Origin: a virus
Length of the DNA: 64,000 bases
Strand: one strand, 5' to 3'
Virus record (IMG/VR): IMGVR_UViG_3300019776_000564
Location: 1-64,000 of that record
How positions within the stretch are numbered: the stretch's first letter is position 1; each line of letters opens with the position of its first letter. Positions 2,397-41,382 of this stretch are shown here, one piece after another. The notes below the pieces were generated by a model, which saw only the letters and a list, made by a program, of their open reading frames with translations, was not told where the DNA came from and searched no databases. The position numbers and the translations under genes are program-made.

Positions 2397-2397
2397 T

Positions 2398-2721: not shown

Positions 2722-2761
2722 ACTCGGGCGCTAACGTCTAATCCAGTAAGAGAAATATCAA

Positions 2762-11262: not shown

Positions 11263-11754
11263 ATGGCTAGCATCTATCAAGACATCGACGGGTCTGGTAT
11301 CGGTTCCAAAACCTGGGAACAAAAGAAAGACAGCCCGGAGTGGACTCTGAAAGAGTACCGCAATGACAAGATCTGGGTTCGTCTCCACTGGATCGGTAAG
11401 TACGATAAGAGCCTGCCGGCCGAGTATCGTCACAGTCACGGTATCCAGGTTTACAACCGACTCATCGTCAAGAAGACCGAGTGGGAGGAAGAGACTTTCG
11501 AGGACAAAGGCTGGATTATCGACCCCGCTGCAACTCAAACCTTCCGAACCAAGTCTGCTGCCGAGTCTGCCTATGAGGATATGCTGCTTCTCTATACAGA
11601 GTGCAGCATTGACGTTGACGAGGATGGCGAAACTATCTTTGTTGAGGCAGGTAATCAGCTTGCGCCAGTTGTAGCTGGTAGCAGCTTGATTATGGATGAG
11701 GAGCAGATTGCTGCCGCTGCTGAAAAAGGCGTTTCGGTTGGCGGCTGGTCTTGA
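11263..11754 (+). CDS. Hypothetical protein ending VGGWS (tail-motif family)
   Basis: ORF and C-terminal motif. Confidence 0.8.
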   Translation: MASIYQDIDGSGIGSKTWEQKKDSPEWTLKEYRNDKIWVRLHWIGKYDKSLPAEYRHSHGIQVYNRLIVKKTEWEEETFEDKGWIIDPAATQTFRTKSAAESAYEDMLLLYTECSIDVDEDGETIFVEAGNQLAPVVAGSSLIMDEEQIAAAAEKGVSVGGWS

Positions 11755-12344
11755 GTCATTACTTTGAACTGGAAGATGCGCCGGACTATCTGGCGCATTT
11801 CCCTGTGCTGCGCGGTAAAGCACAGTTAGGTCGTGGCGAATACTCTGTTGTATTTGAGGGTTGCTGCCCTAAAACCGTACTAAAGCTAACTGTGGATGAA
11901 ACTACGGTTAACTTCCTGCTTAACAGTCGAATCTTAGGCTGTGAGGGTCTTGTGGAGTTCGTTGAGTATCACGGCTCTATGAAATCCCCAGAGCATGAGA
12001 ATGGAGTACACCTCGTTGAGCTAAAAAGGCTTTACCCAATAGAGCCTGATGCTCACAGATCCCTCTACTGGGAAAGAGAGTCGGTCATTGCGGCGATCCG
12101 TCATCGGATAATTGAGAGTGATCGGTTCGAGGGAATCATCCCGGCTCAAGAGCGTTATGCAGGCGCAATTTACGAGCTTGCGTCCTCTAACCTTTTCAGC
12201 CAGTCAATATCAAAAGCGCTTCACTGTATCAGCCAGTTCATGAAAGCCAGCAGCTTGGATCTTCTTCATGATCTGTGTAACCCCGCAAACTATATGACCG
12301 ATGGTTCTCGGCTCATAATCACCGACCCCCTAGTCACTGTATAG
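11751..12344 (+). CDS. Protein-kinase-like fold protein
   Basis: LGRGEYSVV Gly-loop, VLK, HDL.NPANYM, IITDP. Confidence 0.65.
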   Translation: MSHYFELEDAPDYLAHFPVLRGKAQLGRGEYSVVFEGCCPKTVLKLTVDETTVNFLLNSRILGCEGLVEFVEYHGSMKSPEHENGVHLVELKRLYPIEPDAHRSLYWERESVIAAIRHRIIESDRFEGIIPAQERYAGAIYELASSNLFSQSISKALHCISQFMKASSLDLLHDLCNPANYMTDGSRLIITDPLVTV

Positions 12345-12493
12345 GTTGACTAGAGGCTCCCGCATCAAAGCCACACTCTGCCTTGTTGCGCTCTGTATCA
12401 TGAGCGCAACAGCTAAAACGCTAAGTAGCTGATTCGATTAGCTTTATATTTAGCGGTACTCACTCAAATATCAAAATCAAATAGGTGATTCGC

Positions 12494-13354
12494 ATGGCAG
12501 GCAAAAGCGCACTTCAGCAAGTAGAACAAGAACTTCCTATTGGTGAAACAGGCGTAGAAGAGATCGTAATCGGCGCTACAAGCGATACCGGCCTCGATGC
12601 TCTGGATGCGCTTGACGCAATGTTCGATCAACTTGGCGAAGGTGTTTCTACCGAAAGCATCGTTGTGAGCGGCCTGCCTTCTGTAACGGAAGCTGCAACC
12701 GAAAAGCAGATGATCGAAGCAGGTCATGCTGTGAACACCGAAGAGCTTAAGAAGATGGCTCTCGAAGAACTGGACGAGCAATCGCAGCCGGCACCTGACA
12801 ACGTTCAAGCGCCAGCTCCAGTAGCAAAGCGTCAAGCTCCAGTTACCAAGCGCATCAGCACCGTCGGTATGGCAAAGTCTGAAGCTCTGGCTGTTGCACT
12901 TGGTGACAAGCTTGATGACCTTCTGACCATCGACACCAAAGACCTGGCGATGAGCGATGAACAGCGCTTTGATAAGCGCGTTGCCTTGCTTGAGCAGATC
13001 GACAAGATGCCTAAGAAGATCGGCGAGAAAGCGACCAACCTTTTTGCGCACGTCTCCAAAGGCGCAGCGTTGTCCAACTACACCCGGATCGCAATCAACT
13101 TTCTGGTTCAGAACGACGAAATGTCCAGCAAGCAGTTGAAAGACGCCTATCTGAGCCGGCCTTATAGTGAGGGTACTTCCTCCAGCCAATGCACTCAGTT
13201 GATGCACCTTCTGCCTGCACTCGGTATCGCAATCAAAAGTGGCGGTCGACTGATCCCCAACCCAACCTCTACTCTGCTGCCTCTACTGACAGCGCTGAAT
13301 CAACCCGGCCCAACCACCGGCCCGGTAGAGACTGAAGAAGACTCGGCTGAGTAA
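12494..13354 (+). CDS. Hypothetical protein with acidic N-terminus
   Basis: Long ORF with promoter motif 12371-12401; terminator-like hairpin at 13373-13393. Confidence 0.8.
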   Translation: MAGKSALQQVEQELPIGETGVEEIVIGATSDTGLDALDALDAMFDQLGEGVSTESIVVSGLPSVTEAATEKQMIEAGHAVNTEELKKMALEELDEQSQPAPDNVQAPAPVAKRQAPVTKRISTVGMAKSEALAVALGDKLDDLLTIDTKDLAMSDEQRFDKRVALLEQIDKMPKKIGEKATNLFAHVSKGAALSNYTRIAINFLVQNDEMSSKQLKDAYLSRPYSEGTSSSQCTQLMHLLPALGIAIKSGGRLIPNPTSTLLPLLTALNQPGPTTGPVETEEDSAE

Positions 13355-13406
13355 TTCGGTTTCCCCACCTTGCCCGCTTAGGCGGGCTTTTTTATGGAGA
13401 GTAGAA

Positions 13407-13616
13407 ATGAGCAGTCTTCCTGATTGTGACCGTGATGTATACGAGCGCGGCGAAGTTGTCGGCGTATACAATATGCCCAAAGAAGAGGCTGAAGCTCTTC
13501 GTCATAGGCTCACCAAAGAAACTGGCAACTTGCATGACTGGCACTACTCTGGCGGTCGCGTTGTTATGAAGGTTCTGCTAGAGCCTAAAGAGAGAAAAGA
13601 GGGTATCTGGGCATGA
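13407..13616 (+). CDS. Small protein ending EGIWA (tail-motif family)
   Basis: GGAG RBS; ORF. Confidence 0.7.
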   Translation: MSSLPDCDRDVYERGEVVGVYNMPKEEAEALRHRLTKETGNLHDWHYSGGRVVMKVLLEPKERKEGIWA

Positions 13617-13724
13617 GCAAGGTTATGAAGTGCTTAGGATTTTGCATGATGATTGTAGGCAGCCTGGCTCTCGTTTACTGCATGGTTAACTTGATTCTTT
13701 TGGCTCAGAGTACAGGTAACTGAA

Positions 13725-14279
13725 ATGACAAACCCTTTTCATCCGTACCCGGAGCCAAAGCTGACCATTGAATTGGTTCCATCCAGTCAATGGGGTGACA
13801 ACCTTCGCAGTCATCTGAAGCCTTTGCAGTGGGATCTTCTTCGTCAAGCCTGCTATGTTCGTGCTGATAACCGCTGCGAAGTATGCGGCGGTCGTGGGCA
13901 CAAGCACCCGGTCGAGTGTCATGAAATCTGGGAGTACAACGACAGTGCCCGGATTCAGAAGCTGCTTGGATTGGTTTCGCTGTGTCCAAGCTGTCACAAG
14001 GTGAAGCATATCGGCTTTGCTTTGACACAGGGTCAGGACTCTTTCATGAGATCGCTAGGTCAGTTGGCTACTGTGAATAAGTGGCCTATGGAGTTGGCTA
14101 TTGAGTATGTCGATCGCCAGTTTCAGATTCACAAGATCAGAAGCCAGTGGAAATGGCAGATTGATCTTAGCTGGCTGAACGATGTTGAGCAGTACATCGA
14201 AGAGTCTGAAACCAAACAGCGGGAAGCTCGCTCAGAGCGCGCACAAGACGTTTTATTGAACATGACACGCAAGCGCTAG
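13725..14279 (+). CDS. HNH endonuclease-like protein
   Basis: CEVCG..ECHEIW..LCPSCHKVKH. Confidence 0.8.
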   Translation: MTNPFHPYPEPKLTIELVPSSQWGDNLRSHLKPLQWDLLRQACYVRADNRCEVCGGRGHKHPVECHEIWEYNDSARIQKLLGLVSLCPSCHKVKHIGFALTQGQDSFMRSLGQLATVNKWPMELAIEYVDRQFQIHKIRSQWKWQIDLSWLNDVEQYIEESETKQREARSERAQDVLLNMTRKR

Positions 14280-14397
14280 AGTCTGTCGATAGCGCAGCTT
14301 ATACGAGCTTGTAGGCATGGCTTAAGTCACAGACTGCCGGGATAAGCCTATAAGCTGCGCGTAGAATCTAAGCATGTAGATCTATAGGAGTTCCAGA

Positions 14398-14679
14398 ATG
14401 TCCAGAGGAAGAAAGAGCGAAGCTATTCAGGCTCTCGCGGATAAAAGAAAGAGTGACCTGTGCAAGGTCATGAACTCGTTTAGCCGCACCTGCTCCAAAT
14501 GCAAAACGGCCGGAAGCAAGCGAAGGCTGTTTGACCTTGAAGATGGCCTGCTGTGCTTGTTCTGTCTTCCTGAAGGCGTAAATGGCGTCATCGCTTCGGA
14601 GCTTGAAAGGGAAAATAAAGAGCGGCTTGAGTTGGAGAAAAACAAGCCGAAGCCAGAGAGCTATGGTGAATGGTCATGA
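14398..14679 (+). CDS. Zn-ribbon protein ending PESYGEWS
   Basis: CSKC..CLFC; tail motif. Confidence 0.75.
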   Translation: MSRGRKSEAIQALADKRKSDLCKVMNSFSRTCSKCKTAGSKRRLFDLEDGLLCLFCLPEGVNGVIASELERENKERLELEKNKPKPESYGEWS

Positions 14680-14900
14680 ATAACAATGCGGAGTATTGGG
14701 AAGAAGAGGCCGTTTCGCAAAAAGAGGATATGAAGAAAAAGATCGACCTCTTTATCCAGATGGCGAAACAAAGTAACCAAGTCGGAGTTGAGCGAACCAG
14801 AAAATTGGTTTCGGAATCTGAAAAGAAAAGGCTTGAAATGGATGTTGAAGAGTTGCTGGCAGAAGAGCAACGATCAACCGTCATGGGTACATGGGCGTGA
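14676..14900 (+). CDS. Small protein ending MGTWA
   Basis: ATGA coupling; tail motif. Confidence 0.7.
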   Translation: MNNNAEYWEEEAVSQKEDMKKKIDLFIQMAKQSNQVGVERTRKLVSESEKKRLEMDVEELLAEEQRSTVMGTWA

Positions 14901-15286
14901 GATACGAAATCACTAATATGGCGGATGACAGTCTTTATCAATACTTAAAAGGGGACGATAACAGCAAGAAAGAAATGTATGAAGCGATAGTCGCCATGAT
15001 TAAGGCTGAAGAGGAGATTGCAAAAGCAAAAGCGCTTAAAGAAAAGCTGGAAGAGGAAACGGAGGCTGAAAACACCGCATGGTCTAACGTTATGATCGAG
15101 GCGATTGATAGCGGGGTGGTCGACGCAAGCGAAATCACCGAAGAGATATTCAAGATGCGCCGTAATGGTATGTCTATAGGCGCAGCGAGAAGAATGGTTA
15201 AGTCAATTATCAGCCATGAAAGAAGCAAGTTAGCGGAGCTTAAAAAGCTAGAGCCAAAACCTGAAGGCTACGGTTTGTGGTCTTAG
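14897..15286 (+). CDS. Protein ending PEGYGLWS
   Basis: GTGA coupling; tail motif. Confidence 0.75.
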   Translation: MRYEITNMADDSLYQYLKGDDNSKKEMYEAIVAMIKAEEEIAKAKALKEKLEEETEAENTAWSNVMIEAIDSGVVDASEITEEIFKMRRNGMSIGAARRMVKSIISHERSKLAELKKLEPKPEGYGLWS

Positions 15287-15373
15287 TCTAGGCTAAATTC
15301 TGGCGCCCAAATAAAACCTCAACGCGCTCTGTAAAATCAGAGTGCAAACAACAACTTAGTGAGAGTCCAAGCA

Positions 15374-16042
15374 ATGAAAGTTATCGGCAACGCAAAAGGC
15401 AAAGCACCTAAAGGCTGGTGCTTGATGAAGAACGCAAAAACTGGCTTCTTCTATGTCGGCTATGACGGCGACTGGCCTATTCATGGCGGCTACGAAGAAG
15501 TTCTTCACAAGGTAAAGGTCTTCAAAGATGAGCTGGCTGCTCAAGGCGATCGTCCAGTAGTTCTGCCTGAAGTTCCCTGCCCTGGCTATCTGGACTTTCG
15601 GATCGACCGCAAGACCCTGCCTCAAGAAACGCAAGATGCTTACAGCGCATACGAGGCGTACAGTAACTCGGTCTATCTCGCTGACCAGTGGGACAAGTTG
15701 GAAGAAAAGACTCACGTCGTGCCTTTCGACCACATGCCGCTGTTTGAAGCAGAGCTTCGTTTTGTTGGCTACACACGAGGCCGTAGCTCAGTAACCATGA
15801 AGTTTGAAGCAGAAAACGGCCAGATCATTGAGTTCGGCCCATCCGGCATCGACGGTCTGATTCAGGGCATTATCGATGGCAAGTGCGAAACCTGTGAACT
15901 GACAGGTAAGTACGAAGAGGAGACCTGGGATGAGATTAAACAGGAATATATCTGCACCATGATCCCGCGTGGTAAAGGCATCAAGGCCCGCTTCAAGTTC
16001 GCGAAGAAGGGTCAAAACACCTACGCTGAACTGTCGGAGTAG
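15374..16042 (+). CDS. Hypothetical protein
   Basis: GAGAG RBS; promoter motif 15307-15337. Confidence 0.8.
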   Translation: MKVIGNAKGKAPKGWCLMKNAKTGFFYVGYDGDWPIHGGYEEVLHKVKVFKDELAAQGDRPVVLPEVPCPGYLDFRIDRKTLPQETQDAYSAYEAYSNSVYLADQWDKLEEKTHVVPFDHMPLFEAELRFVGYTRGRSSVTMKFEAENGQIIEFGPSGIDGLIQGIIDGKCETCELTGKYEEETWDEIKQEYICTMIPRGKGIKARFKFAKKGQNTYAELSE

Positions 16043-16047
16043 TAGCC

Positions 16048-18197
16048 ATGACTCTCGTCATTGTTGGCTGGGTAGCAATCCTGCTTATCACTGCATACCT
16101 GCTTTTCTCCAGCTTCGCAATTTTCGTTGGTGGGCTTGGTCTGACAGGCAAAGTTCCGGGTGAGTTCTACTTCTTTGTGGTTCTAACAGGGCTTATGGTT
16201 TGGCTCTGCTATCACACTTGGCCCTTTGAAGTAGCTATTAAGGCCACGCAATGATTTGGCTGAAGCGGCTTTTCAACTTGCCAGCCCTTGTGTGCCTCCA
16301 CGTCCAGCACTCAAAGCAGTATATTCGTGTTCAGAAAGCGCAGAGCGACTTACATTGGGCTTGCGATCAGTGTGAAGACCCTAACAGCATGGCTGTTAGA
16401 AGCTTCACCCGCAGTCTGGAGCTTGAGCTTGAACGGATGACTGAAATTGACGAAAGGATCTATAAGCTATGGTCGAAGGGTCGAGGTTTGAAGATCGACT
16501 AACCGACATTGCCCGGGCAGAGTTTTGTGCTCTGCTCAAGGCAAGGGTTTGGCAGTTGGAAGTTGAAATCGCAGAGCAGTTGGAAATCGAAGAAGCTTTG
16601 ATGGTCGAGTTCCAAGTCGAGAATCGCAAAATTATGGGAGGTTGGGCATGAAAGGTTTTTTGAAGCGTAAAGTTGGCAAGCTGTTTGGTTTCTCGAAAGA
16701 GATCGAGCGTCTGGAAATGGCTTTGGTTGCTGTAAGCGTTGCTACTCAGGCAAACACTCGTCAGGCCGCAATTCAGCAGCGTCTGTCGGAAGACAGCCCC
16801 TGGTTCTGCGCAGCAGTTGCCGATGTTCATCATGCAGTTAACCGTGAGATCGCTCTCCGTGAAGAACTTCAGGCTGCTAACGAACGTTTCAGCTTTTCGA
16901 TCAGTGCCCGTGACAACCTCCGCGAAGCACTGCGACGCAAGTCCGGCGAGTGTGAGGATCTGAAAATCAAGATCATTGAGCTTGAATCCTTAGGCTCTAA
17001 ACTCACCCTCATCGACCCTCTGTCAACCAAGAACTGCATCAAGTGCGGTAGCGAAATGATCCCTCTTCGCAGCGAGGACAAAAAGCTGTGCAGTAACGGC
17101 GCTTGTGGTCATGAGATCGAATGGCTTCTCGAAGAGGGTCAGGAGTACATGCACAAGCGCAACGTGGAACCGTTCGTGGAAGATCGCTCCAACGTATCTC
17201 TTCGCCGTGAAATCGAAGAAGAGTGATCCCATGAACAGGATCATGAAATTGATCTCTGAAGACGTAGACGGCGCAGTTATTGTTGCCGTCGTTTCTCTCG
17301 TAGCGGTGCTCATAGCAATAGTTGCTTTGGGCTATTTGAAGTAGGGGGTAAGCGTGGCGATCCATATCAAGACAGATATGCTTGCAACGGTTGTAAATCA
17401 GCAGACTAACCCGGATATGTTTGCAGGTTCGGGTGACGGTGGCATGCACCTCAAGGCTATGCGCAGTCTGGTTGGCGGCGACATTCAGATTATCAGTCTG
17501 AAAAAGCCTCTGATCATGGATGGTGTTACTTACACCTGCATGGGTATGAACGAGGAAGGCAAGTTCAGCGGCCTCAAGATCAACATGGTTGCAACCAAGA
17601 TCGCCAAAGAGCATACGTCGATTGCACATGACGATGTGATCGTTGGTGATGCGGTTCTTTTTGAAGCAAGTGAGGTGCTGTGATGGCTCGTCTCATCACC
17701 GAAGAACAGTTGGCGGAAATCATCAACGATCTTCGCAGCCAACCCGGCTGTGTCTCCAGCGAAAGCTATAACTTTGGTTCAGACCATGCTTCTGAGCTAA
17801 TCATCAACAAGCTCAAAACTCTGCCGAAATACGAGGAGGTAAAAGAATGAGCCAGTACAGCACCGTAACTCACGTTTCGCCGCACAAACTCGGCTGGTTC
17901 CGCAAATTTGCAAATATGCTGACTGGCTGCCGCTTCCACTACCAGATCGATCTGGTCTATTACTACGAGCAGGATGAAGATGGCTGCTTCGTAGACAACA
18001 AGTTCTACAGCCACACCACCCAAATCAGCGTTATCGACCCGAAAGCCCTCGACTACGATCAACGCCGGACCCTCCATAAGATGCTGTTCCCGAAATTCAT
18101 CAAACGCATCAAGGGCTACGGCGGTGGTAATACGCTCAAGGGCGGCAAGACCAATAGTATCCGCATCGAGAACATCCAGTATCTGGGTTACTACTGA
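16048..18197 (+). CDS. Run of small ORFs (16048-16254 membrane, 16251-16502, 16469-16651 ending MGGWA, 16648-17226 Zn-ribbon, 17231-17344, 17354-17683 DUF3846-like, 17683-17850, 17847-18197)
   Basis: Coupled starts/stops; NEEGK..N..AT..IVGDAVL in 17354-17683. Confidence 0.7.
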
Positions 18198-18209
18198 TCG
18201 GAGATCAAA

Positions 18210-18476
18210 ATGGCTTCAATGATCCGAGTCAAATGTGAATACTGCGGCAACGGCATTGAAGTTCGTGAGGCTGATCGAAAGCGTGGCTGGGGAAGGTTCT
18301 GCAACAAGTCGTGCAAAGCCGCTCACCAGTCATTCGGGCCAAAGTACCCAGCCACGCCCAAGCCCAAATCTACAAAGCCGACGCCCAAGAACATGAAGAA
18401 GGGCGGCGTGATACCTCCACCGCGTGAATCAATGAAAAGCACGCCAAAGCCAGAGAACTACGGAGGATGGTCATGA
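18210..18476 (+). CDS. Zn-finger protein ending PENYGGWS
   Basis: CEYC..RGWGRFCNKSC; tail motif. Confidence 0.75.
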   Translation: MASMIRVKCEYCGNGIEVREADRKRGWGRFCNKSCKAAHQSFGPKYPATPKPKSTKPTPKNMKKGGVIPPPRESMKSTPKPENYGGWS

Positions 18477-18784
18477 TCAGCATCGGCATTCTTGAAAGAC
18501 ACGACGTGATTCGCGCCGACGACTATGTTCGCTGTACGAGCATTCAGTTATTTGGTCAGAGCGACACCGTTATGACCCGGGCGACATACGGCGGCGCCCC
18601 GCTCAACTATTTCCGCTGGCTGACTGTCGAGCAGTCGATGATGTTCCACTTCATCGGCAAAACCGTTGGCTACGTCAACAAGACAATGAGCAAGATGACC
18701 GGCAACGAAGAGCCTCACTACGAGTTTGCACGCGGTCAGATCCCTGATGCTCACAAAATGACCCTTAGAAAGGAAGGCTGGTAA
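18473..18784 (+). CDS. Hypothetical protein
   Basis: GGAGG RBS; ATGA coupling. Confidence 0.7.
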   Translation: MISIGILERHDVIRADDYVRCTSIQLFGQSDTVMTRATYGGAPLNYFRWLTVEQSMMFHFIGKTVGYVNKTMSKMTGNEEPHYEFARGQIPDAHKMTLRKEGW

Positions 18785-18803
18785 TGGACAAGGGGCAATT
18801 GAA

Positions 18804-19235
18804 ATGGCTGTGAAGTCGGTCGAAGCCAAAATTGACCAGCGAAGCATCATGCCTGCGCCTACAAAGTGCCGGTTTTGCAAATCTAAGGTCGAGTATGTAA
18901 GCCATGCAAAGATCTATGGAGGAAGAACCTTCAGCGATTGGCCTTATATCTACCTCTGCACTAATTCTGAATGCGGCGCTTCTGTAGGTGTTCATGCTGG
19001 CACAGAACATCCACTTGGCACGCTTGCAGACCAGACTACAAAGAACGCCCGTAAGGCTGCACACGCTGCCTTTGATCCTATCTGGAAGTCCGGTCAGATG
19101 AAGCGCTCTGAAGCCTATAAATGGCTTGCAGATCATCTGGATATCGAACGTTGGCGCTGTCACATCAGTTGGTTTGATACAGAGGTTTGCAACAAGGTTG
19201 TAAAGATCTGCATGAGCAGAAAACCCTCCAACTAA
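18804..19235 (+). CDS. Zinc-finger protein (DUF3268-like)
   Basis: CRFC, IYG, VGVH.GT..PLGTLAD, AHAAFDPIW, AYKWLA, CHISWF. Confidence 0.8.
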   Translation: MAVKSVEAKIDQRSIMPAPTKCRFCKSKVEYVSHAKIYGGRTFSDWPYIYLCTNSECGASVGVHAGTEHPLGTLADQTTKNARKAAHAAFDPIWKSGQMKRSEAYKWLADHLDIERWRCHISWFDTEVCNKVVKICMSRKPSN

Positions 19236-19336
19236 TAAGTTTGGCTGTCAAATGGCAGCCAAACTTACCTATCTCAAAAGCTCGTAGAATCAACGCTCAA
19301 ATCAATGACTTACGTTAGCGCGTAACTTGAGCGAGG

Positions 19337-19882
19337 ATGTCTCAGATGAGCTTACAGAAGCTCCCCAGTCAATCTAACGTGCTCTTTTCAGAAGAGTTTA
19401 AGCTGATTCGCAAGCACTACGGCAATCGTGTAGCGAAGCGCAGCCAGTTACCGCTGATCAATCATATCCTCGAAGGCTTGGATATGATGGATCGTATGAG
19501 TGCAAGCCAAGAAGCAAAGAAAGCTTTCTGCCTGCATCCTCTCATTCAAGACGACAGAGCGCTTGAGAAGAACTGGGAGAAGACTGTCAACAACCCGAAC
19601 GTATGCCGGGAGTCTCTCAGCCTGGCTATGAAGTATAGTTCTGCCGCAAACGCCTATATGTGCTGGCCTAGCACCGATAACTTCACTCTTCTTGATCTCA
19701 AGGTAAAAGTTGGCCCGTTGAATCAAGACCTGATTCACATGCTGGTCGCAGACAAAATCCAGAACGAAAAGGATTTTGAGATCCACCACAAGAAGACTCA
19801 TCACCGTAGTAAGCAGTTGGCTCGATACTACGATCTGTGGCTTCAGTACCTCGATATTTGCGAGGCTGAGTTGCCAAAATGA
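19337..19882 (+). CDS. HD-fold-like hypothetical protein
   Basis: RSQLPLINH, LHP, VADKIQN resemble an HD hydrolase pattern without a canonical HD. Confidence 0.45.
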   Translation: MSQMSLQKLPSQSNVLFSEEFKLIRKHYGNRVAKRSQLPLINHILEGLDMMDRMSASQEAKKAFCLHPLIQDDRALEKNWEKTVNNPNVCRESLSLAMKYSSAANAYMCWPSTDNFTLLDLKVKVGPLNQDLIHMLVADKIQNEKDFEIHHKKTHHRSKQLARYYDLWLQYLDICEAELPK

Positions 19883-20343
19883 AGCGATACATCTGTCGTG
19901 CTTGCGGTAAATTTGCCAACCCACCTAAAGGCTCAAGCGACGTTGAGTGCCCTCACTGCGGTGCTATCACCGGCAACCCAGAAATTCGCACCGAATCGGT
20001 GATGCCAGCCGCAAATGTTGAGCGTATTGGCAAAGATGAAGTTGCCAAAATGAAGTATCCAAATGGCCGGCGCTATCCTAAGAATGACGGAAGTAAAAGC
20101 TATCTGACTGTACTTTGGAACAAACCTGCCCATGAGGAGGTTGATCTTCAGTATTACTGGCGCATGAGCAACGACCACTTCAACTCACCTAACCGTCCGG
20201 TGATGAAGCCGGATATTAACCTTCTGATGCACCATTTTCAGTCGCTGAAAGGCTATTCGGGAAGAACCCTTGTCGAAGAGCTTGTTCATCGCGGCTATGA
20301 CATCAGTACCCTGAAATTCACCATCGAGAAATTAAAACCATGA
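19879..20343 (+). CDS. Zn-ribbon protein
   Basis: CRAC..CPHC. Confidence 0.7.
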   Translation: MKRYICRACGKFANPPKGSSDVECPHCGAITGNPEIRTESVMPAANVERIGKDEVAKMKYPNGRRYPKNDGSKSYLTVLWNKPAHEEVDLQYYWRMSNDHFNSPNRPVMKPDINLLMHHFQSLKGYSGRTLVEELVHRGYDISTLKFTIEKLKP

Positions 20344-21710: not shown

Positions 21711-22006
21711 CCTGCTCAATCTCACTCATTCTTAAATACTCGCGTCGGCTTTGCACGATGAATAAGAGCCAGATCATGCACGCTATCACCGAAGAAACCG
21801 GTGAGCTTGCAACTGAGGTCGCTATCGATGCAGGCTACAAGAAGCGTGAGCATGGTAAAGACGGCATTATCGGGGAGGCTGTTGATGTGATTGTGTCGGC
21901 CGTAGATATGATTTATGCCGAAAATCCGCATATTACTGCGGAGGAAATCCATACTCTAATTTCTGCAAAGCGTGGAAAGTGGGCATATAACATCGAAAGG
22001 GGTTAA
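21707..22006 (+). CDS. MazG-like nucleotide pyrophosphohydrolase
   Basis: EETGELA..GEAVDVI. Confidence 0.7.
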   Translation: MTCSISLILKYSRRLCTMNKSQIMHAITEETGELATEVAIDAGYKKREHGKDGIIGEAVDVIVSAVDMIYAENPHITAEEIHTLISAKRGKWAYNIERG

Positions 22007-22010
22007 CAAG

Positions 22011-22403
22011 ATGGCTACGCTAACCCAAAAGCTGATCGCAAAGGCTCAGCAAGCGTGCGTAGCCTTCTACCACGTCGCAACCGACTACGATGACTGGGGG
22101 ACAATACCCGAACACTGGCTTCAGATTCACGCTGAGAGTCCTGCGCCGGGTTATATCAACAGATACTTCGTCCGAGTCAAGAGCACCAGACGCTTCGAGC
22201 ACCAGACGGATGCGTTGAGTGATATCGACCGAACTAGAGGCGTTGTGTGCGTCACCTTTCTGCACGGGGCGATCACGGCTGACACCGAATGGTATGTGAA
22301 GCCTAGTGGTCGCCATGCAAATCCACTGGAAAACTATCAATATAGAGACGCGCAAGAAGAGATTGAGGCTAACAAGCCAGAGGGGTATGGAAATTGGGCA
22401 TGA
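22011..22403 (+). CDS. Protein ending PEGYGNWA
   Basis: ORF; tail motif. Confidence 0.75.
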   Translation: MATLTQKLIAKAQQACVAFYHVATDYDDWGTIPEHWLQIHAESPAPGYINRYFVRVKSTRRFEHQTDALSDIDRTRGVVCVTFLHGAITADTEWYVKPSGRHANPLENYQYRDAQEEIEANKPEGYGNWA

Positions 22404-22828
22404 ATGTTGAAGAGTGCAAGTCGCTGATTTGCCAGATTATGAAAAATCTGATTTCCAAAGTGTCTGACGATGATCTGAAAGAACTCGGTACGGAAGAGAC
22501 TTTACGTCTTAGCGATGTTCTGGATGAGAAAATGTGGAAAGAGTCGAGCAAGAGAACCTCATCAAAAGATGGTGTTACTCGCGTTTTTTCCAACATATCA
22601 ATTGACGCCAAGATTACGCTGCAAGAAATCCCTAACGCTGATGGCAATTCTCACGTTGAAGTAAATATGACCAAGATACCGAACATACTTCAGCGAGCGG
22701 TGGATGCGGTGGATCAGATGGATCTGCCGGGTAGCGGAAATGTTGGCCCATCAGTAGCTCGACGTACTGAAGAAATTCCATCAATGAAAGAGGGGCCAAA
22801 GCCAGAAGGCTTTGGGATGTTCTCATGA
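22400..22828 (+). CDS. Protein ending PEGFGMFS
   Basis: ATGA coupling; tail motif. Confidence 0.75.
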   Translation: MNVEECKSLICQIMKNLISKVSDDDLKELGTEETLRLSDVLDEKMWKESSKRTSSKDGVTRVFSNISIDAKITLQEIPNADGNSHVEVNMTKIPNILQRAVDAVDQMDLPGSGNVGPSVARRTEEIPSMKEGPKPEGFGMFS

Positions 22829-24756
22829 CCGTTCGCACGCTTGTAGTACGAGAGGATGAGAAAGGACTGTACGTTAGCTATAAGGATATGGATCAGCGCA
22901 TCACCATACGTCCCGGTACTATTACTGACGCTGACAAGATTGGCCTCTATAGCAAAGGCGAAAAGATAAAGGTTCATCACTGGAACAAGATGATGGGCTA
23001 CCTCATGGTTAGAAAACATGGTGGCTACTTGGCGCAGTGTGTATGGCAAGGGCCACGTTACGACAATCAATCCCGCAAATGGGTATATGACAAATGAAAA
23101 CCGTATTCGATAAAACCTACAGCGCCGAAGAACTGGCTGATGTCGACCGCGATATCTGCGAAGCCTTTGATGACAATCCTGTGGTCGAAGAAATTCCCGT
23201 CGATGAAAAGGGCTTTCAAAAGGGTACCTTCAAAGTAACCATCACCTGGACTCCAGAATAATGAGTAAGGTTGAAGCTCTAATTCTGGTAGACACTTTGG
23301 GTGGAGAGTTCGAGGCTTCGATAGAAGTCTTTGAAGAGCCGGCAGAGAGAACGATCTGCATTACTATCGATGATGAGCCTCAAAGTTTTCATTCTGCCAA
23401 TTTGGGGTGGGAGGAAGCAAAGGCGTTGCGTGATTGGCTGAATGAGGCGCTGAAAGATGACTAAGTTCAACCCATACAGGCTCAAGAAGCCATGTGCAAA
23501 CTGCCCGTTCCTAAAGGACACCAGCAAAGCTATCAGGCTTAGCTCTGATCGAGTGCCAAGCATCATAGAGGATCTTCTCTCTGGCGAAACTACAGGCTTC
23601 ACCTGTCATAAGACTCTCAAGGGTCAATACCAAGAGTCTGACGATGATTACGGTGAAGTCTACGTTCCTGGCGAAAACGAACAGCAGTGTGCCGGCGTTC
23701 TTGCTGTCCTCGAAAAACTGAACCACCAAACTCAGCTAATGCAGGTTATGGGTCGCTTAGGCTTGTATAACCGCGATACTTATCGAGCGCTGTCTGACGT
23801 GGTGATCGACTATGAGCCAAAATAACAATCCTTTGATCGAAAGAATAAAAAGAGAGGGGTGCTACCTCGACATAAAAGAGCTGGAAGACGGGACGATAGT
23901 AGCCATCGGTGAGCTTATGTTCACCAGAGCGATCTATTGGGATTGCGATATATGTGGCTGGGGAAAGCGATTCTGCTATGAGGATCGTGATCTTGCGACG
24001 GCTCAGTACGCCTTAGCAAAAGATGGCGACGAGTACCCAACAGGTTGGATTGCAACTCGACCAGAGCCTTAGGCGTGATAAAGTGAGGCTTTGATAAATC
24101 AGAGGGCTTTAAACATGAGCAACAAGCTGAATGTCTCCAATTTCAACCTACAAATCGGCAACGATGAAGTGGTAGAAGCGAGCAAGGTTGCAAAGTTCAA
24201 AAGCGGCAACTTCGCGGTAGTTAAAGACACCGTTCGGATGTCAGTTGTTGGAGAAATGGGCAAGCCGGCATGTTTGCTTATTGAAGACTCCAAGAGCGGC
24301 TGGAAGCCAAAAGAGTCAGACTGCAACATCCTATGCTTCGATGTAACCATCAACGAACCCGGGCCTGATCGTGAGGTTATTCTGGCTCAGGTTGTTACGG
24401 TCAGCGGTATTGCGGCCGCCCAGATCGTTTGGATGGATCATGAGGCAACAGGTAAGGGTAAGGTTGTTCTCCGAGTCAAAGAGTACATGCCCGTAAATCC
24501 TGTCGATGTGGTCTTAAAAGGTGAGGTTGAGATTGGTGAAGAGATTTCGCTGATCCTCAGCCTTAAAAAGGACTCGAAGATTGAAGTGGCTACTATTGGC
24601 AGTCGGCTTAGCGTGGATTCGTTCCAGCTTAACGCTCAGTCGTATTCCAATGAGTCATTCAGGTTTGTAGTTGGGCCTCAAATCGAAGAAAACGATGACG
24701 GTCTTGCCTCAGTCGTCTTCACGACAATTGGCGTTCTCCATAAAGAAGCCCAGTAA
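22825..24756 (+). CDS. Run of hypothetical ORFs (22825-23097, 23094-23261, 23261-23464, 23457-23825 with PCANCPF, 23812-24072, 24115-24756)
   Basis: Coupled starts/stops. Confidence 0.7.
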
Positions 24757-24855
24757 GAAAGAGCGGCTGTCGGTATTTTATTGGCAGCCGCTTCCTGCCT
24801 CTATTTATAGCTTAAAATTCGCATGTGTTAATAACAACGCATGAGAGTAGAAAGC

Positions 24856-25425
24856 ATGAGCAAAGATAACCACGAACACAACCCAGAGTGCAGCCACTGT
24901 CAGATGCTCGCATCTGGCATGACTGAAGAGCAGGTTCGCGAAGCCTCCATTCAGCAAATCAAGGAAATGATCGAACGAAGCGGTATCGCGATCATTGGCG
25001 TTTCGCATGATGCCGAAAACAATGTTCCGGCATTCTTCTACACCGTTGGCTTTACTGACATCGGTATGCCAGAAGTGATTCTGTTTGGCCTGCCTGAAAA
25101 ACATGCTCTGCCAGCGATCAATCGCTACTTCAGTGAAGTCAAAGAAGGCACTCGCCCGAGTGGGCCTAGCCTGATCGATGACTACTTCAACCTGCCTGTC
25201 CAGATCATCAACGCAGACGCCGAAATTTCTTTGGGGATTGCGAGCGATACGGTCGCCTACTACGAGAATCAGGGTAAAGACTTGAAGCCAACCTTCGTTC
25301 AGTGGGTGCTGTCTGACAAGAATGGCGAGTTTCCCTGGAGCGAGAACTTCGAGCCTCACTTCTATCAGCCAGTAATCGGCCTTCCGCCGACTGAAGATCA
25401 GGCTTCAGACCGAGTTCTGCACTGA
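24856..25425 (+). CDS. DUF4262-like protein
   Basis: FFYTVGF..GMPEVILFGL, QWVLSDKNGEFPW. Confidence 0.75.
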   Translation: MSKDNHEHNPECSHCQMLASGMTEEQVREASIQQIKEMIERSGIAIIGVSHDAENNVPAFFYTVGFTDIGMPEVILFGLPEKHALPAINRYFSEVKEGTRPSGPSLIDDYFNLPVQIINADAEISLGIASDTVAYYENQGKDLKPTFVQWVLSDKNGEFPWSENFEPHFYQPVIGLPPTEDQASDRVLH

Positions 25426-25458
25426 TAACCATAAACAAATTCTGATCATGTGGTGAAA

Positions 25459-27302
25459 ATGAAAAGCCTCGAAACGTTGGTTGAAGTCCCGGAAGAGTTG
25501 AAGGGTATCTACTCTTCATTGGAAGAGTTGAAAGCTGAGTTGGCGATCGTTGCGCCAAACAGCGAGCGCAACGATGTTCTCATGGGTAAGATCTTTGAGA
25601 AATTGACCACTGCTGAGGCAGAAGAGGTCAAGAAAGAGATCACGGAAATCGCCGTTGCGATGAACGATCTGATGAAAAAGCGTTTCGGTGAACCAACGCC
25701 AGAAGCAATTACTGGCCTCATCGTGTTCTCCGACTTGCTGCACGAATACTGCGAACCGCCGGCACTATCGTCTGAGCAGTTTCACGTACTTGTGGATTCA
25801 GGCGCCTTTGACGAACTGATGACGGGTACAGGCAAGTAGTAGTAAGCGCTTGCAAAGTCCAACACCTGCCACTCGCTCTCTCGTAAACTAGCTTTAACGC
25901 AGCGCAAAAGCTGCGATTTACGAGAGAGCTTTCCCATGACCGACAAGAATATCCACCTCGCCAGCAATAAACTGATCGCCGCAGCTTTTGAAGCGGCCGC
26001 TGTTGGAGAACCCGGGCAGTGTGTTATCGGGGTTTTCAAAGGTCTCGCCATCACAGCCTTAAAGTTTGAAGCTGTGACAGAGCGAGAAGGTATTGTTCGA
26101 GCCATCTGCACTGGCCCAGATAACAGTATCGTGGGGATCTGCGAAGCCAAAAAGTTTGAAGATATCCACGACTACCTAATAACCCGGTGTCAGCTAGCTC
26201 CTGCTCGCGTGAACTATGAGTGGAGCAAGTTCATCACCGCGAATGAAGCCGCTCTCCCCTACAAAACTCGCTTTGAAGAGGCTGAGTTGTTCAACAAGGC
26301 CAGCGAAGAAGCATCTCTAGGAACGATGGGTCAGTTTGAAGCTAATGGCCTCATGTACAGCATCGTTCACAATTCCGCGTTTCGCATCGTCGATAAAGAC
26401 GCCAGCAAAGATAGAACCAATCCAGAGTTCTATACCGTGTACATCCAAAACTCATCCGTGCAAGACCCTGATGAGTGTCTGGTCGACACAGAGTCGTTCG
26501 ATACCACGTTTGAAGCGATTGTGTTCATTCGCAACCACATTGAAAAGTCCCTGATGAAAGAATTTATGCCGAAAATGTTCTAACTCACACAACCAGTTGG
26601 GGTGAATAACATGATCCAGAAAAAGATAGGCAAAATTACCTTCGGTGCCGGAATCATGAGCTTTGTGCCGGCCGACATAGACACCAGTCTCAGCGATGAG
26701 GTCGTTTATATGGCTGCTCTGGGTGACGCCATCAACAACGCAGGTGGTCACCGAAGCTTCATGCGAGAAAATGGCTTTGTCCGTCGCAACACACTCGGTC
26801 ATATTCAGATTCAGGGAGAAGGCTGGATCATCGATTTCAAGAGCGAAGAGTTTATTACCGAGTTCAATCGCCTCAAAGACTCGAAAGACTGGGTAGCTTT
26901 CGCCGCACTGTCTCAGTTCGACACAGTGACCTCGTTCGATAACAAGGGAAATAAGAAGCCATGAGCCGCATTGACCTGATCAAACAAAAGCTTGGCGAAC
27001 CTACCTTGATTCACACAACCTGGGGTGTCGCAGAAAAGTGGCTGTTAGGCGCTCGCGTATCTCTGATCAATTGGCCTGAGAATGCCGGGACGTATCTGTG
27101 CTTTATCCCAACTCAACAGCAAGACTCTCGGCAGCTTGAGTGGCGTGCGGGAGATCAAGCTGCATGGTTCAGAGAACTGTACCCACAGTTCGATAAGATC
27201 AGCCTGTCTCACAGTCAGACCATCAGCAGAGAAGGCTTTGATGAGTGGCTAGATAAAGTGATCGCAGCTATGGCGCTCATAGCAACAAAGGGCACGCTGT
27301 AA
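25459..27302 (+). CDS. Four hypothetical ORFs (25459-25839, 25936-26583, 26602-26964, 26961-27302)
   Basis: ORFs; terminator-like hairpin at about 27324-27350. Confidence 0.7.
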
Positions 27303-27799
27303 TTATCTAGTAAACGCTTGCACAAAAGCCTGCTCTAAGCAGGCTTTTTATTTGGTGAACATAGCGCCTTGGAATCGTGAACATGTGTAAACCATTAACA
27401 TTCTGATGCACAACCTTAGGCGCGACAAAAGCCAACAAACATAAGGGTGAAAAGCCTGTTTACCCGTGTTCGAATGTTAATGGGTTGTTAATACCCATGC
27501 AGAGACGAGACAGCGATCAGCTAAGACAGAAATTTGTCTCTGGGAAGACGTCTGAGAGCTTCTACAAGACGAGAACCGGATATAAACAAGTCAGCGTACT
27601 GCTCAAACATTCCCATCGCTTATACGAGCTTGTAGAAGCTCGACCATTTTACGAAAACAGAACTTTAGGACTCCGGGTTAGTTACCTGTTTGGGAGCCAA
27701 CTCTTCCCTATTTAATAACTAGATAATACAAGCTGAAGTATTAAATAAGGGAAGGGTTGGATGAGGCTCTTACCCTAGAAGCCAAAGAGAGGGAGTTGC

Positions 27800-28141
27800 A
27801 TGATCAACCCGGAACAAGAGCAGTTTCTGTCGACCATCTCGGCGCTTGCTCACAGCCTAAGAGGCCAAACTTTGACCGACTTGCAGTTGGATCAGCTTCA
27901 GATTGTGGAGCGTCTTCTGACCAACCTTGCTGTTCAGAAAGCAACTGAAAAGCCGGAAGCAAAGCCAGAGCCTGTCGAGTATCAGATCGGTGAACAGGTG
28001 ATGCTTGAGATGCCAACAGGTATGCAGCTAACAACGGTCATCGATAAGGTCGCTGCGGATACAGGCTACGAGTACAAGACCGCTGCTACTGGTCGCACCC
28101 TCTGGATTGGCACTCGCAGACTGCAAAAGGTGAGCAAATGA
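27800..28141 (+). CDS. Hypothetical protein
   Basis: GAGGGAG RBS; promoter motif 27697-27727. Confidence 0.7.
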   Translation: MINPEQEQFLSTISALAHSLRGQTLTDLQLDQLQIVERLLTNLAVQKATEKPEAKPEPVEYQIGEQVMLEMPTGMQLTTVIDKVAADTGYEYKTAATGRTLWIGTRRLQKVSK

Positions 28142-28674
28142 ATACCGAGTCTGAGTTCAAAGGCTTTCGATGGATCAAGTTCCATGAAACCTTGAAGATC
28201 ATGGGTTGGGATATGGCATGGGATCTGGACAACAATCTCAAGAATGAAGACCGTGTGGGAATCGTTCGCATTCTCCCGTCTATCAGGCTCTGCCCAGAAG
28301 GCTATGTAGCTATGCACCCGGAGCAAGAATCTAAAACGATCGCTTCAAAGCTGACCAAAACAGGCCATCTAGCAAGGCTCGTATCTATCAAGAGAGAAGG
28401 GTCTGCAAGATACGCAATAGAGATCTGTAACGTAGTCTCAGGGCGCAATTCTGCTGGCTATCCTGTTACCTACAACTGGGCCAACCTCGACGGCAAAATC
28501 CAAGAGCATACCCCTTACGTAAGCCTGTCTGAGGCTCTTGAGCAGTTCGCTGTAGATTGGGCAGGCAATATAGAAACCCCAATAGACTACGCAAAACTGG
28601 TCAAAAACAAGCCTATCGAGGCTCCTGTTGTGTCCCGGGCTGAGATCTATCAAGACTTCGGTACGTGGTCTTAG
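28138..28674 (+). CDS. Protein ending YQDFGTWS
   Basis: ORF; tail motif. Confidence 0.75.
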   Translation: MNTESEFKGFRWIKFHETLKIMGWDMAWDLDNNLKNEDRVGIVRILPSIRLCPEGYVAMHPEQESKTIASKLTKTGHLARLVSIKREGSARYAIEICNVVSGRNSAGYPVTYNWANLDGKIQEHTPYVSLSEALEQFAVDWAGNIETPIDYAKLVKNKPIEAPVVSRAEIYQDFGTWS

Positions 28675-28836
28675 ATACGGCTACCGCTTAACCCAAGCAC
28701 GTATCCCGTGTAACCCCATAGCTGTCTAGCTAGACTACACACAAGCGCACACAGATAGCGCTACGCAAGACCATTGGTAATGAAACAAGCAAGTCATGGA
28801 AGTCAACAAGCCCTTAAACCAAGTGGAGTGTTAACG

Positions 28837-29121
28837 ATGTCCAGTCAAGCTCGTATCAACAAAACCAACAGCGTCGTAGTCCCGCTAGTACAGACGAACA
28901 AGGCAGTATTGTCGTTCTCTGATCTGGTAGTAGGTGATCGCTTTCAACCCGTGTACGCAATCGGGAAAGGTTTCCCCGTATACACGAAAACCCGGCATGA
29001 CCAAGCGCGCTGTCACAGCCTTGAGTCGATAGAACTGAAGAAGAACAGCTATGGCTATCTCGAAGATCCAATCGTAGCCGTAGCTGCAAATGAGAAGGTT
29101 CGTTTTCTACCCGTCGAGTGA
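28837..29121 (+). CDS. Hypothetical protein
   Basis: GGAG RBS; promoter motif 28706-28736. Confidence 0.65.
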   Translation: MSSQARINKTNSVVVPLVQTNKAVLSFSDLVVGDRFQPVYAIGKGFPVYTKTRHDQARCHSLESIELKKNSYGYLEDPIVAVAANEKVRFLPVE

Positions 29122-29236
29122 GCTTCGACGTGGTAAAGGCTGTAGTGACCGTAAAGCTTTCTTAAGCCTCTTACGGTCACTTTCTTAAAACCGTTTTAAC
29201 CAAGGCAAACCTAAAGAAAAGCAGGAGCACACAAGT

Positions 29237-30077
29237 ATGTCCATCAAGCCACAAATCAAACCATGCAAACTCCCGGAGAACATCTATCTGCTTCTAGAGA
29301 ACGGCAAATACGTAGGCCGCACAACCGATCTCAAGAACGTCATCCATTTCGCAGAGCGTACTAGCCAAGGCAAGCTCAAGGTAGAAGTAGATCTGCTCAC
29401 TGATAACAGCCTTGAGAAGGTAGATCTAGAGATGCTTAAAAGTCTGCTCAAAAAGGAAAACTACAAAGCCGGCGTAGAGAAACGTCAGGCCACTTTGGCT
29501 AAAAAGAAACTCGAAGCCAAAGCCTCTGTTAACGGTCTTCCTGCAGGCTCTTACGGGATTTTCTCATGATCATTCGCAAACCACCTAAGGGTGAACCAAT
29601 CCCAGAAGCTTTGTTGATTCACAAAGAGAAATCCCTTAAAGGCCAAATCAAGAAAGCAGAACGTGACCTCAAACGTGTAACCACAAGAAAGAACCAACTG
29701 GGTAAACACGTCGTAGAAAGATTTCAGAAATACCTAGACCAACAGTTCACCACTCTCTATCAGTTTACAGAGTACCTAGAAACCAAAGACCTCGATTCTA
29801 TAAGCCTCAAGCAGAAGCAACCCGGATACCAAGACTGGGGAGGTTTCCAGTGAGCAAGAGAAACCCCAATAAATACAAACCTAAGTACAACCAATCACCT
29901 CTGTCCAAATTTTACAAAGAGGCTACCAAGGAAGAACGAAAGAAGGTTTTCCTAGAGGTAGCAAGAAAGGCAATAGAGAAACAGAACCAGATAAAGGATA
30001 GAGGTATACAGATAACCTTCATGGTCATAGATGAAATGACAGAGTACACAGGAGAGACAGTGACAAACCCGGGATAG
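29237..30077 (+). CDS. Three basic ORFs (29237-29569 ending YGIFS, 29566-29853 ending WGGFQ, 29850-30077)
   Basis: AGGAG RBS; coupled stops/starts. Confidence 0.7.
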
Positions 30078-41304: not shown

Positions 41305-41382
41305 GGTGAAGTCCTATTGGTTTGAGCTAAATGTGGGTCTATGATAATGCTCGCACGATATAAAATCGACGGGGAAGTAGAT

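Follow-up and report, generated by a model that had tools for sequence, protein, structure and literature searches.

Why should a dozen small, apparently unrelated proteins encoded in one region of a Pseudomonas phage genome end in almost the same aromatic peptide, and what could this shared end be for? The question arose from a sequence-only reading of the window, i.e. the stretch of 64,000 nucleotides covering positions 1 to 64,000 of the 108-kb record IMGVR_UViG_3300019776_000564, which noticed twelve C-terminal tails of the form G-x-[W/F]-[S/A/Q], took them for a peptide motif and inferred a docking tag, degron or sorting signal plugging diverse effector domains into one hub protein. The observation itself is confirmed, since all twelve C-termini and their stop positions are exactly as listed there (Table 1). 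In addition, a scan of 1,810 stop-to-stop open reading frames of the whole genome found the pattern G-x-[WF]-[SAQ]-stop 15 times on the coding strand and once on the other strand, the three further members being located outside the window. From the amino-acid frequencies of the genome, only 0.10 such ends are expected in about 160 genes (binomial P about 7e-28), whereas the same four-residue pattern anywhere in the proteins occurs 31 times in 33,358 positions, including the terminal copies, against about 22 expected, so that only the C-terminal position is enriched. The motif is also longer than previously recognized, its commonest form being [KR]-P-x-x-[FYW]-G-x-[WF]-[SA]-COOH, with a second class having an aliphatic residue (M, V or I) before the Gly. 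The fifteen bodies show no BLASTP similarity to each other once the tails have been trimmed.

Table 1 Features with the tail and other features discussed in the text; coordinates are those of the window unless marked as genome positions, and G and L numbers designate individual genomes and loci of relatives
Position	Strand	Length (aa)	Protein	C-terminal end	Observations
11263..11754	+	163	Protein just after dnaQ	..KGVSVGGWS	Distant homologue of G006 76392-76832, which ends ..DSFGAW
13407..13616	+	69	Protein	..KEGIWA	Orthologues end ..GHGEWA, ..SDWA or ..SPWA
14398..14679	+	93	Cys-rich protein	KPKPESYGEWS	Orthologues in four relatives end RPEDFGGWS or KPDKYGEWA
14676..14900	+	74	Helical protein	..STVMGTWA	L013 has a similar end, ..RSTSMGQWA
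14891..15286	+	131	Coiled-coil-like protein	KPEGYGLWS	TAG stop with no overlapping gene
16469..16651	+	60	Helical protein	..KIMGGWA	Three orthologues end ..KLMGGWA
18210..18476	+	88	FCS/YacG-like zinc-finger protein with a Lys/Pro-rich linker	KPENYGGWS	Only the finger (residues 1-43) has homologues in 53 other phage records; the linker and tail do not
22008..22403	+	131 (143 from the GTG at 21972)	Protein	KPEGYGNWA	Orthologues end RPENFGSWA, KPAGYGAWE or KPEGYGTWA
22400..22828	+	142	Protein	KPEGFGMFS	Orthologues end KPEGFGAFA or KPGNWGSFA
28138..28674	+	178	Protein	..YQDFGTWS	TAG stop with no overlapping gene; orthologues end ..GYGLFG or KPEGFGKWA
29237..29569	+	110	Basic protein	..AGSYGIFS	
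29566..29853	+	95	Basic protein	..YQDWGGFQ	Weakest member, because its last residue is Q
41380-41892			HslV-like Ntn peptidase		Starts MTT..; matches phrog_1040 at E = 6e-32
Genome 84732-85508			Own copy of the WGR protein	G-x-[WF]-[SAQ]	Further member outside the window; matches WGR only at hhalign probability 77.6%, supported by gene order and the tail
Genome, ending at 104613				G-x-[WF]-[SAQ]	Further member outside the window
Genome, ending at 105476				G-x-[WF]-[SAQ]	Further member outside the window
Genome 87920-91332			CobS/CobT-like MoxR AAA+ ATPase and vWA pair		Outside the window; directly upstream of the DnaE polymerase

With regard to the level at which the signal operates, the evidence points to the peptide and not to the DNA. 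The Gly is coded by GGT, GGA, GGG and GGC, the Ser/Ala by six codons, and the stops of the fifteen members are TGA in 11, TAG in two and TAA in two cases. It should be pointed out that, of the twelve stops in the window, all but the two TAG stops are NTGA overlaps with the ATG, GTG or TTG of the next gene, a feature missed by the sequence-only reading; tail genes are, in fact, enriched for such overlaps (7 of 11 against 17 of 70, P = 0.013), and GGAGG-like strings occur in some tails. A by-product of translational coupling—a GG-rich Shine-Dalgarno sequence plus an ATGA overlap encoded in the last codons—or a nascent-peptide effect on termination and re-initiation is nevertheless very unlikely, since 29 other 4-base gene overlaps lack the motif, tails also precede TAG and TAA stops with no overlapping gene, and neither the Trp or Phe nor the upstream K-P-E-x-Y is required by any ribosome-binding site.

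Conservation of the tails among homologues, which had been named beforehand as a point on which the idea could fail, was found. The end GGWS of the first protein in Table 1 is invariant in 52 homologues down to 52% identity, and the AF2 model of this protein consists of a folded body (residues 1-130) and a disordered tail (residues 135-163, pLDDT below 50). Each of four Nickievirus genomes contains 13-16 carriers, and the 70 carriers in five Nickievirus phages fall into 27 unrelated body families, in which the orthologue tails are kept. The tail thus has the properties of a short linear motif at a C-terminus with regard to its recurrence on unrelated proteins, its terminal position, its conservation and its predicted disorder. 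It is, moreover, older and wider than the sequence-only reading saw, extending beyond this phage genus. Distant phages of ~110 kb carry [WF]-G-x-[WF]-COOH, first of all on a PARP-type WGR protein, a putative DNA-break sensor, found in 141 metagenomic clusters, 139 of them with the tail, across very different genomes. The oldest carriers are DNA replication and repair proteins rather than effectors, sitting between primase and ligase (WGR), after Rad50/Mre11 and next to DnaQ.

Each genome has its own version of the tail, uniform within the genome and differing between genomes, i.e. [FY]G[MR]F in seven carriers of G010, WG[VILM]F in seven of G011, WG[ST]W in four of G008, ..FA in three of G001, and ..[WF][SA] in the own genome. 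The carriers within a genome have no body similarity, and yet the WGR family and the post-Rad50 family switch W to F together both in G003 and in G010, which points to one common reader. The earlier interpretation is thus partly supported: the motif acts at the peptide level, sits on unrelated bodies and behaves like a docking tag for one hub, whereas nothing in the present results supports a degron or an export or sorting signal specifically.

Based on the above results, the best explanation appears to be a short linear docking peptide at the extreme C-terminus—an aromatic or aliphatic residue, Gly, any residue, Trp or Phe, then at most one small residue and the free end—usually following a flexible Lys/Pro/Glu linker. 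In this view, it would plug many unrelated proteins into one common reader encoded by the phage lineage, these proteins including DNA-binding modules, such as the PARP-type WGR break sensor, a Ku-like Gam in relatives, the FCS zinc finger and proteins next to DnaQ and Rad50/Mre11, as well as a dozen small early proteins. The leading candidate for the reader is the CobS/CobT-like pair. The tail may enter a space-limited site at or near the central pore of the CobS ring, where the helix-2-insert hairpins lie, or on the vWA partner, and the ATPase may then load, remodel or strip the tagged proteins during replication and repair. The analysis itself establishes the motif and its position-specificity, its conservation, its change in step within genomes and the exclusion of HslV and Gam as readers by their absence from tail-bearing genomes; what is inferred is the binding as such and its consequence, the existence of a single reader, which is likely, its being phage-encoded, which is somewhat more likely than not, and its identity with CobS/CobT, which remains tentative. 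The whole statement, including CobS/CobT as the reader, is given a probability of about 0.35.

Concerning this candidate, the CobT-CobS-x-DnaE block and an intact MIDAS (D490, S492 and S494 invariant in 42 sequences) are conserved across the group, the pair is present in all genomes examined, and all 15 WGR-tail loci in which CobS was found keep the order DnaG, WGR, ligase, CobT, CobS. It should be noted, however, that all distant loci were picked through CobS or lie in the same gene block, so that the co-occurrence is partly by construction and equally true of DnaG, ligase and DnaE. Of about 4,370 alignment columns in DnaG, ligase, CobT, CobS and DnaE, only CobS E221 cleanly separates F-type from W-type tails, E going with W tails and Q, S or N with F tails in G001, L024/L025, G010/G011/L070, G003, L074 and L078, and the CobS tree needs at least 4 independent E-to-Q changes. 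According to the alignment to the solved CobS 9ujv, E221 lies in the TEFELGPL strand of the helix-2 insert, a hairpin that in true CobST grips the finger of the partner in the pore (bioRxiv 10.64898/2026.10.09.757910). This covariation is only suggestive, because the column was found after the fact among thousands and would not survive a strict multiple-test correction, and a permutation null was uninformative for CobS. Moreover, one Q-state lineage (G012/L075) has two W tails, an A-state lineage (L144) is mixed, the own genome and nickie have E221 but use both W and F, and E221 may co-vary with CobT rather than with the tails.

The reader could, alternatively, be another conserved phage replication or recombination protein—the DnaE polymerase, the gp32-like SSB, RecA/UvsX, DnaB, the ATP-dependent ligase or the FEN-like exonuclease—in a way resembling the acidic aromatic-tipped tails of T7 gp2.5 and gp4 docking on the polymerase. 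The positions of the oldest carriers, the acidic residues preceding the tail in distant phages (PEPERGEEWGSW), as in T7, and the conservation of all these proteins wherever tails occur speak for this possibility, but it seems doubtful, since no column in DnaG, ligase or DnaE separates tail types once more lineages are added, and the few columns seen with nine genomes, the only scan that included SSB, RecA and DnaB, did not replicate. A host reader, i.e. a protease or unfoldase recognizing a C-terminal degron, or a hub such as the beta sliding clamp, which these DnaE phages would have to borrow, appears unlikely as well. No clamp gene was found in the replication module, DnaE—and only DnaE—ends in a clamp-motif-like QVADIFDL, and hosts differ between lineages (Pseudomonas, and a Vibrio assembly holding a relative), so that a host reader differing between hosts could also give genome-specific tail versions. 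The tail, however, resembles neither the beta-clamp motif QL[SD]LF, or the hydrophobic LxF-type ends, nor ssrA-type degrons with their non-polar ..LAA-like end, its versions differ more than expected for a reader as conserved as the clamp, and conserved replication proteins are unlikely substrates for constitutive degradation.

The phage's own HslV-like peptidase was also considered, because the form G-x-aromatic-x-COOH matches the HbYX and GQYL tails docking on proteasome rings, the penultimate aromatic residue at the free C-terminus being present in the own and nickie-like genomes, but not in distant relatives, whose older tail form ends on the aromatic residue itself. This reading is very unlikely, since phrog_1040 is absent from 4 of 5 complete distant genomes (G006-G009), three of which (G006-G008) were checked and carry 3-5 tails each, and since the peptidase is only 44% identical between this phage and nickie, while the tails are unchanged.

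The general principle of shared C-terminal tails read by a hub is known from T4, T7, SSB and proteasomes, whereas this motif, its spread and the way it changes in step across a genome were not described in the papers that could be searched. As in the T4 proteins gp43, gp33 and gp55 binding the gp45 clamp, and in T7 gp2.5 and gp4, several unrelated phage DNA-metabolism proteins share a short C-terminal peptide, by analogy plugging into one hub, and in those systems the terminal aromatic residue matters; the sequence Phi-G-x-[WF](-[SA]) is, however, different, and there are far more carriers, most of them small early proteins. In the HbYX/GQYL system, too, diverse proteins share an end—hydrophobic-aromatic-x or G-x-aromatic-x—that inserts into pockets of one ring-shaped machine. 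Among the MoxR AAA+/vWA pairs CobS-CobT (CobNST), CbbQ-CbbO and NorQ-NorD, the phage pair is homologous to solved CobS (E = 5e-53 with the profile), but its CobS carries an extra N-terminal Cys2-His zinc finger, no CobN or other cobalamin gene is found among the products annotated for nickie, and many tail-tagged clients, as proposed here, are not described for any MoxR system in the papers searched. In the Ku-binding motifs of XLF, PAXX and APLF, basic or Pro-rich linkers are followed by a short hydrophobic C-terminal motif recruiting repair factors through a vWA domain, the X-KBM lying at the very C-terminus and ending in Ser (10.1101/2023.12.12.570754); its sequence is ..G-L-F-S. That system is eukaryotic, no homology is claimed, and the phage Gam, a Ku relative, carries the tail rather than reading it.

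About one gene in ten of this phage carries the tag, nearly all of these genes, as well as the 13-16 in each close relative, being annotated as hypothetical, so that one shared handle would give a single experimental entry point to a large block of unknown phage genes. If the CobS/CobT reading holds, it would explain why phages so often carry 'cobalt chelatase' genes without the rest of the pathway. A still bolder possibility, doubtful on present evidence, is that the 'cobS/cobT' genes widespread in large phages are not cobalamin genes but encode a protein-handling motor whose clients are marked by a genome-specific C-terminal tail; in this phage group, the motor would read an aromatic Phi-G-x-[WF] end on a PARP-like DNA-break sensor, on recombination and proofreading accessory proteins and on a dozen early proteins, one ATPase thus organizing or recycling the whole replication-repair and takeover set.

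The tag would also link a catalytically bare PARP-type break sensor to a partner. The assignment of this oldest carrier to the WGR domain rests on Pfam PF05406, which matches 6 of 12 members (best E = 3e-13), and on a Foldseek search, the top hits of which in the PDB are the WGR domains of PARP3 and PARP2 with probability 1.00. In contrast to PARP1-3, there is no catalytic ADP-ribosyl-transferase domain, a disordered linker and the tail standing in its place.

The proteins of the window, which is the first 64 kb of a single virus record of 108,018 bp, are 56-76% identical to those of the Pseudomonas syringae phages of the genus Nickievirus, i.e. nickie, ZY21, phiK7B1, Nican01 and hairong, and the syntenic 50 kb of four of these, together with all of nickie, were used for the comparison. 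The twelve C-terminal tails listed by the sequence-only reading are all present as described. In the whole genome, the pattern G-x-[WF]-[SAQ]-stop closes 15 ORFs on the coding strand and one on the other strand, so that three more carriers are found in addition to the twelve, whereas only 0.10 such ends are expected from the residue frequencies of the genome (P about 7e-28). Anywhere else in the proteins the same four-residue pattern occurs at the chance rate, so it is the free end that matters. The fuller consensus is [KR]-P-x-x-[FYW]-G-x-[WF]-[SA]-COOH, with a second class having M, V or I before the Gly. The coordinates of the features dealt with below are collected in the table.

Coordinates of tail carriers, candidate readers and other features (L008 positions refer to the same features of this genome; L010 and L023 are other contigs)
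Feature	Position	Position in contig	C-terminal end or remark
Three consecutive proteins, including the NrdB-like one	window 2031-3814		..IIPEW, ..FDINW, ..KGLEW
Protein with a terminal Trp	window 18467-18784		..RKEGW
Zinc-finger carrier	window 18210-18476		finger shared with 53 phage records from many hosts, one annotated 'putative DNA gyrase inhibitor' (YacG-like)
Site without the Mu Gam-like 'host nuclease inhibitor' gene	window 40067-40185		gene present at this spot in all four compared relatives, with the tail ..RPADFGHFS
HslV-family Ntn peptidase	window 41380-41892		catalytic N-terminal Met-Thr-Thr; no HslU gene beside it
Carrier, copy of the WGR family in this genome	genome 84732-85508		..SWGGFA
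CobS-like ATPase	genome 90028-91332	L008:6028-7332	extra N-terminal Cys2-His zinc finger
DnaE-type polymerase	genome 91960-95352	L008:7960-11352	..QVADIFDL
Protein between the UvsY-like gene and the SSB	genome 96631-97215	L008:12631-13215	one N-terminal membrane helix; long low-complexity Ser/Asp/Tyr-rich region
gp32-like SSB	genome 97373-98203	L008:13373-14203	..LDELDDLLEG
Carrier	genome 103813-104613		..NFGGWA
Carrier	genome, stop at 105476		..IGEWS
SSB and an unrelated ~220-aa protein of distant relatives		L023:17794-18669 and L023:2469-3137	..DELDELLADLDG and ..DLDSLLDDLDG
Five consecutive tail-bearing genes in a nickie-like IMG/VR contig		L010:7777-9825 (minus strand)	..FGEWA, ..FGAFS, ..YGAWS, ..YGTWS, ..FGAFS

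Since ten of the twelve stops are NTGA overlaps with the next start and some of the tails contain GGAGG-like strings, an artefact of translational coupling or of a Shine-Dalgarno sequence was considered as the first rival to a peptide signal. It was rejected, because 29 other NTGA overlaps in this genome follow ordinary C-termini, two members in the window end in TAG and two nickie carriers in TAA with no overlapping gene, and the Gly is encoded by all four codons while the last residue uses six. The genes with the tail are somewhat enriched for overlaps (P = 0.013), which we read as tight packing of small early genes.

With regard to conservation, each of the four relatives has 13-16 carriers in the syntenic 50 kb. 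After the tails had been trimmed, the 70 carriers fell into 27 BLASTP families, no two carriers of this genome being similar to each other. The orthologues keep the tail while its variable positions drift, and the few that miss the strict pattern still end ..SPWA, ..SDWA or ..WGxW. For the 163-aa protein encoded after dnaQ, 52 database homologues down to 52% identity all end GGWS; the AF2 model of this protein consists of a confident body (residues 1-130) and a disordered stretch of the C-terminal 30 residues, and a fold search with the body gave no match among solved structures. In the zinc-finger carrier only the finger has homologues in other phages, so the linker and the tail were added in this lineage. 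Pfam and PHROG scans of the carrier bodies yielded almost nothing, and a search of IMG/VR with the strict DNA pattern for KPExYGxW[SA]-stop found only nickie-like contigs plus two chance hits. One of the nickie-like IMG/VR contigs, L010, exhibits a local expansion of tail-bearing genes that is not present in this genome.

The tag is older and wider than the genus. A scan of IMG/VR for relatives of the CobS-like ATPase of the phage returned 80 loci, most of them from 100-118-kb contigs at 40-50% identity, with the conserved order CobT, CobS, a ~200-aa gene and DnaE. In these loci, 28 ORFs end [WFY]-G-x-[WFY] with at most one more residue, and most of them belong to one family positioned between primase and ligase. 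This family has a WGR domain, as shown by Pfam PF05406, by an AF2 model with pLDDT 90 and by PARP3 and PARP2 WGR as the top PDB hits. A profile search of 1.8 billion representative proteins found 141 clusters of 140-200 aa, of which 139 end W-[GA]-x-[WF] with or without a final Ala—including WGSW in 69 and WASW in 24—the consensus being P-E-P-[DE]-R-G-[ED]-x-W-G-S-W. The assignment of the copy in this genome is based on an hhalign probability of 77.6%, the same gene order and the same tail. Two further old positions carry tails, one of them being near DnaQ, the other being the gene after Rad50/Mre11 in all eleven complete genomes examined (designated here by G numbers), although it should be noted that the copy in G005 ends only ..IESW, which is outside the pattern. 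The Nickievirus lineage then spread the tag to a dozen small early proteins and added one small residue after the aromatic one.

Within a genome the tails share one version, whereas between genomes the version differs: [FY]-G-[MR]-F seven times in G010, W-G-[VILM]-F seven times in G011, W-G-[ST]-W four times in G008, [YF]-G-[AD]-F-A three times in G001, mostly W-G-T-F in G003, and ..[WF]-[SA] in both the genome studied here and nickie, the bodies of the carriers within a genome being unrelated. The WGR family and the family after Rad50 end in W in six genomes and both end in F in G003 and G010, two genomes that lie in different clades of the primase and CobS trees. Where the end is F, the preceding variable residue tends to be larger (M, L, I, V or R) than it is with W (S or T), which looks like a fit to a pocket of fixed size; the last residue after the aromatic one is absent or small. 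What the sequences show is a real and strongly conserved C-terminal address tag of a large phage group; from its behaviour we infer, without binding data, a space-limited site in one reader that differs between lineages, so that the reader would be either phage-encoded, or host-encoded and host-specific. The interpretation offered by the sequence-only reading, a docking tag, degron or sorting signal plugging diverse effector domains into one hub protein, is partly supported. The principle of such shared tails is already known from T4, T7, SSB and proteasomes, whereas literature searches on the motif, on phage HslV and on phage WGR found nothing relevant, and this motif, its spread and its concerted change were met in no paper found.

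Among the possible readers, the HslV-like Ntn peptidase, which starts MTT and matches phrog_1040, was attractive at first, because G-x-aromatic-x-COOH resembles the HbYX/GQYL tails docking on proteasomes. It was, however, dropped, since it is absent from four of five complete distant genomes, the three of those that were checked carrying three to five tails each, and since it evolves fast, being only 44% identical to its counterpart in nickie; its distribution among related phages is patchy. The Mu Gam-like, i.e. Gam/Ku-like, protein was excluded as well, because it carries the tail in relatives but is missing from this genome. A hidden sliding clamp was also looked for, but no clamp gene was found in the replication module, the 389-aa protein encoded after DnaE having a UvsY-like C-terminal part and not a clamp. 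The end of the DnaE-type polymerase, kept in relatives in the similar form [VT]-A-[DE]-I-[FIL], nevertheless resembles the C-terminal clamp/tau-binding motif of E. coli alpha.

The leading candidate, the CobS/CobT pair, consists of a MoxR ATPase with an N-terminal zinc finger and a vWA protein with an invariant MIDAS and a long acidic linker. In the finger, C8, C11, H16, H21 and H26 are invariant in 20 sequences and there is a weak Ros/MucR match; true CobS lacks it. A first covariation scan on nine genomes flagged columns in DnaE, ligase, RecA and others that did not replicate when more lineages were added. The alignments of DnaG, ligase, CobT, CobS and DnaE were then scanned for columns in which all lineages with F-type tails carry residues never seen in lineages with W-type tails, without the 141 WGR clusters and 120 CobS homologues being paired by contig. 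Only two columns passed, one in CobS and one in CobT, and none in DnaG, ligase and DnaE. The CobT column was set aside, because it varies widely among divergent lineages and mostly tracked general sequence divergence rather than the type of tail. The CobS column is E221, located in the strand TEFELGPL. It is E in all W-type lineages and in the nickie group, whereas in F-type lineages it is Q in G001, G003, G010/G011/L070 and L024/L025 (L numbers designating loci), S in L078 and N in L074. It is A in the mixed L144 and, as a clear exception, Q in G012/L075, which has two W tails. The CobS tree requires at least four independent changes. It should be pointed out that this finding is post hoc and that the cluster-permutation null was unusable for CobS and DnaE, the clusters being too few; CobS/CobT as the reader, inferred from sequence alone, is therefore only a tentative assignment (probability about 0.35). 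E221 aligns to K124 of solved CobS in the helix-2-insert hairpin, and in the true CobST motor these hairpins grip the finger of the partner inside the pore (bioRxiv 10.64898/2026.10.09.757910).

The same phages exhibit a second, acidic shared tail, since the gp32-like SSB ends in an acidic stretch, and in distant relatives the SSB and the unrelated ~220-aa protein have nearly the same end. The protein encoded between the UvsY-like gene and the SSB may anchor the replication module to the membrane. Finally, the four proteins of the window ending in Trp as the last residue may be degenerate relatives of the tag or may represent an unrelated NrdB-type tail.
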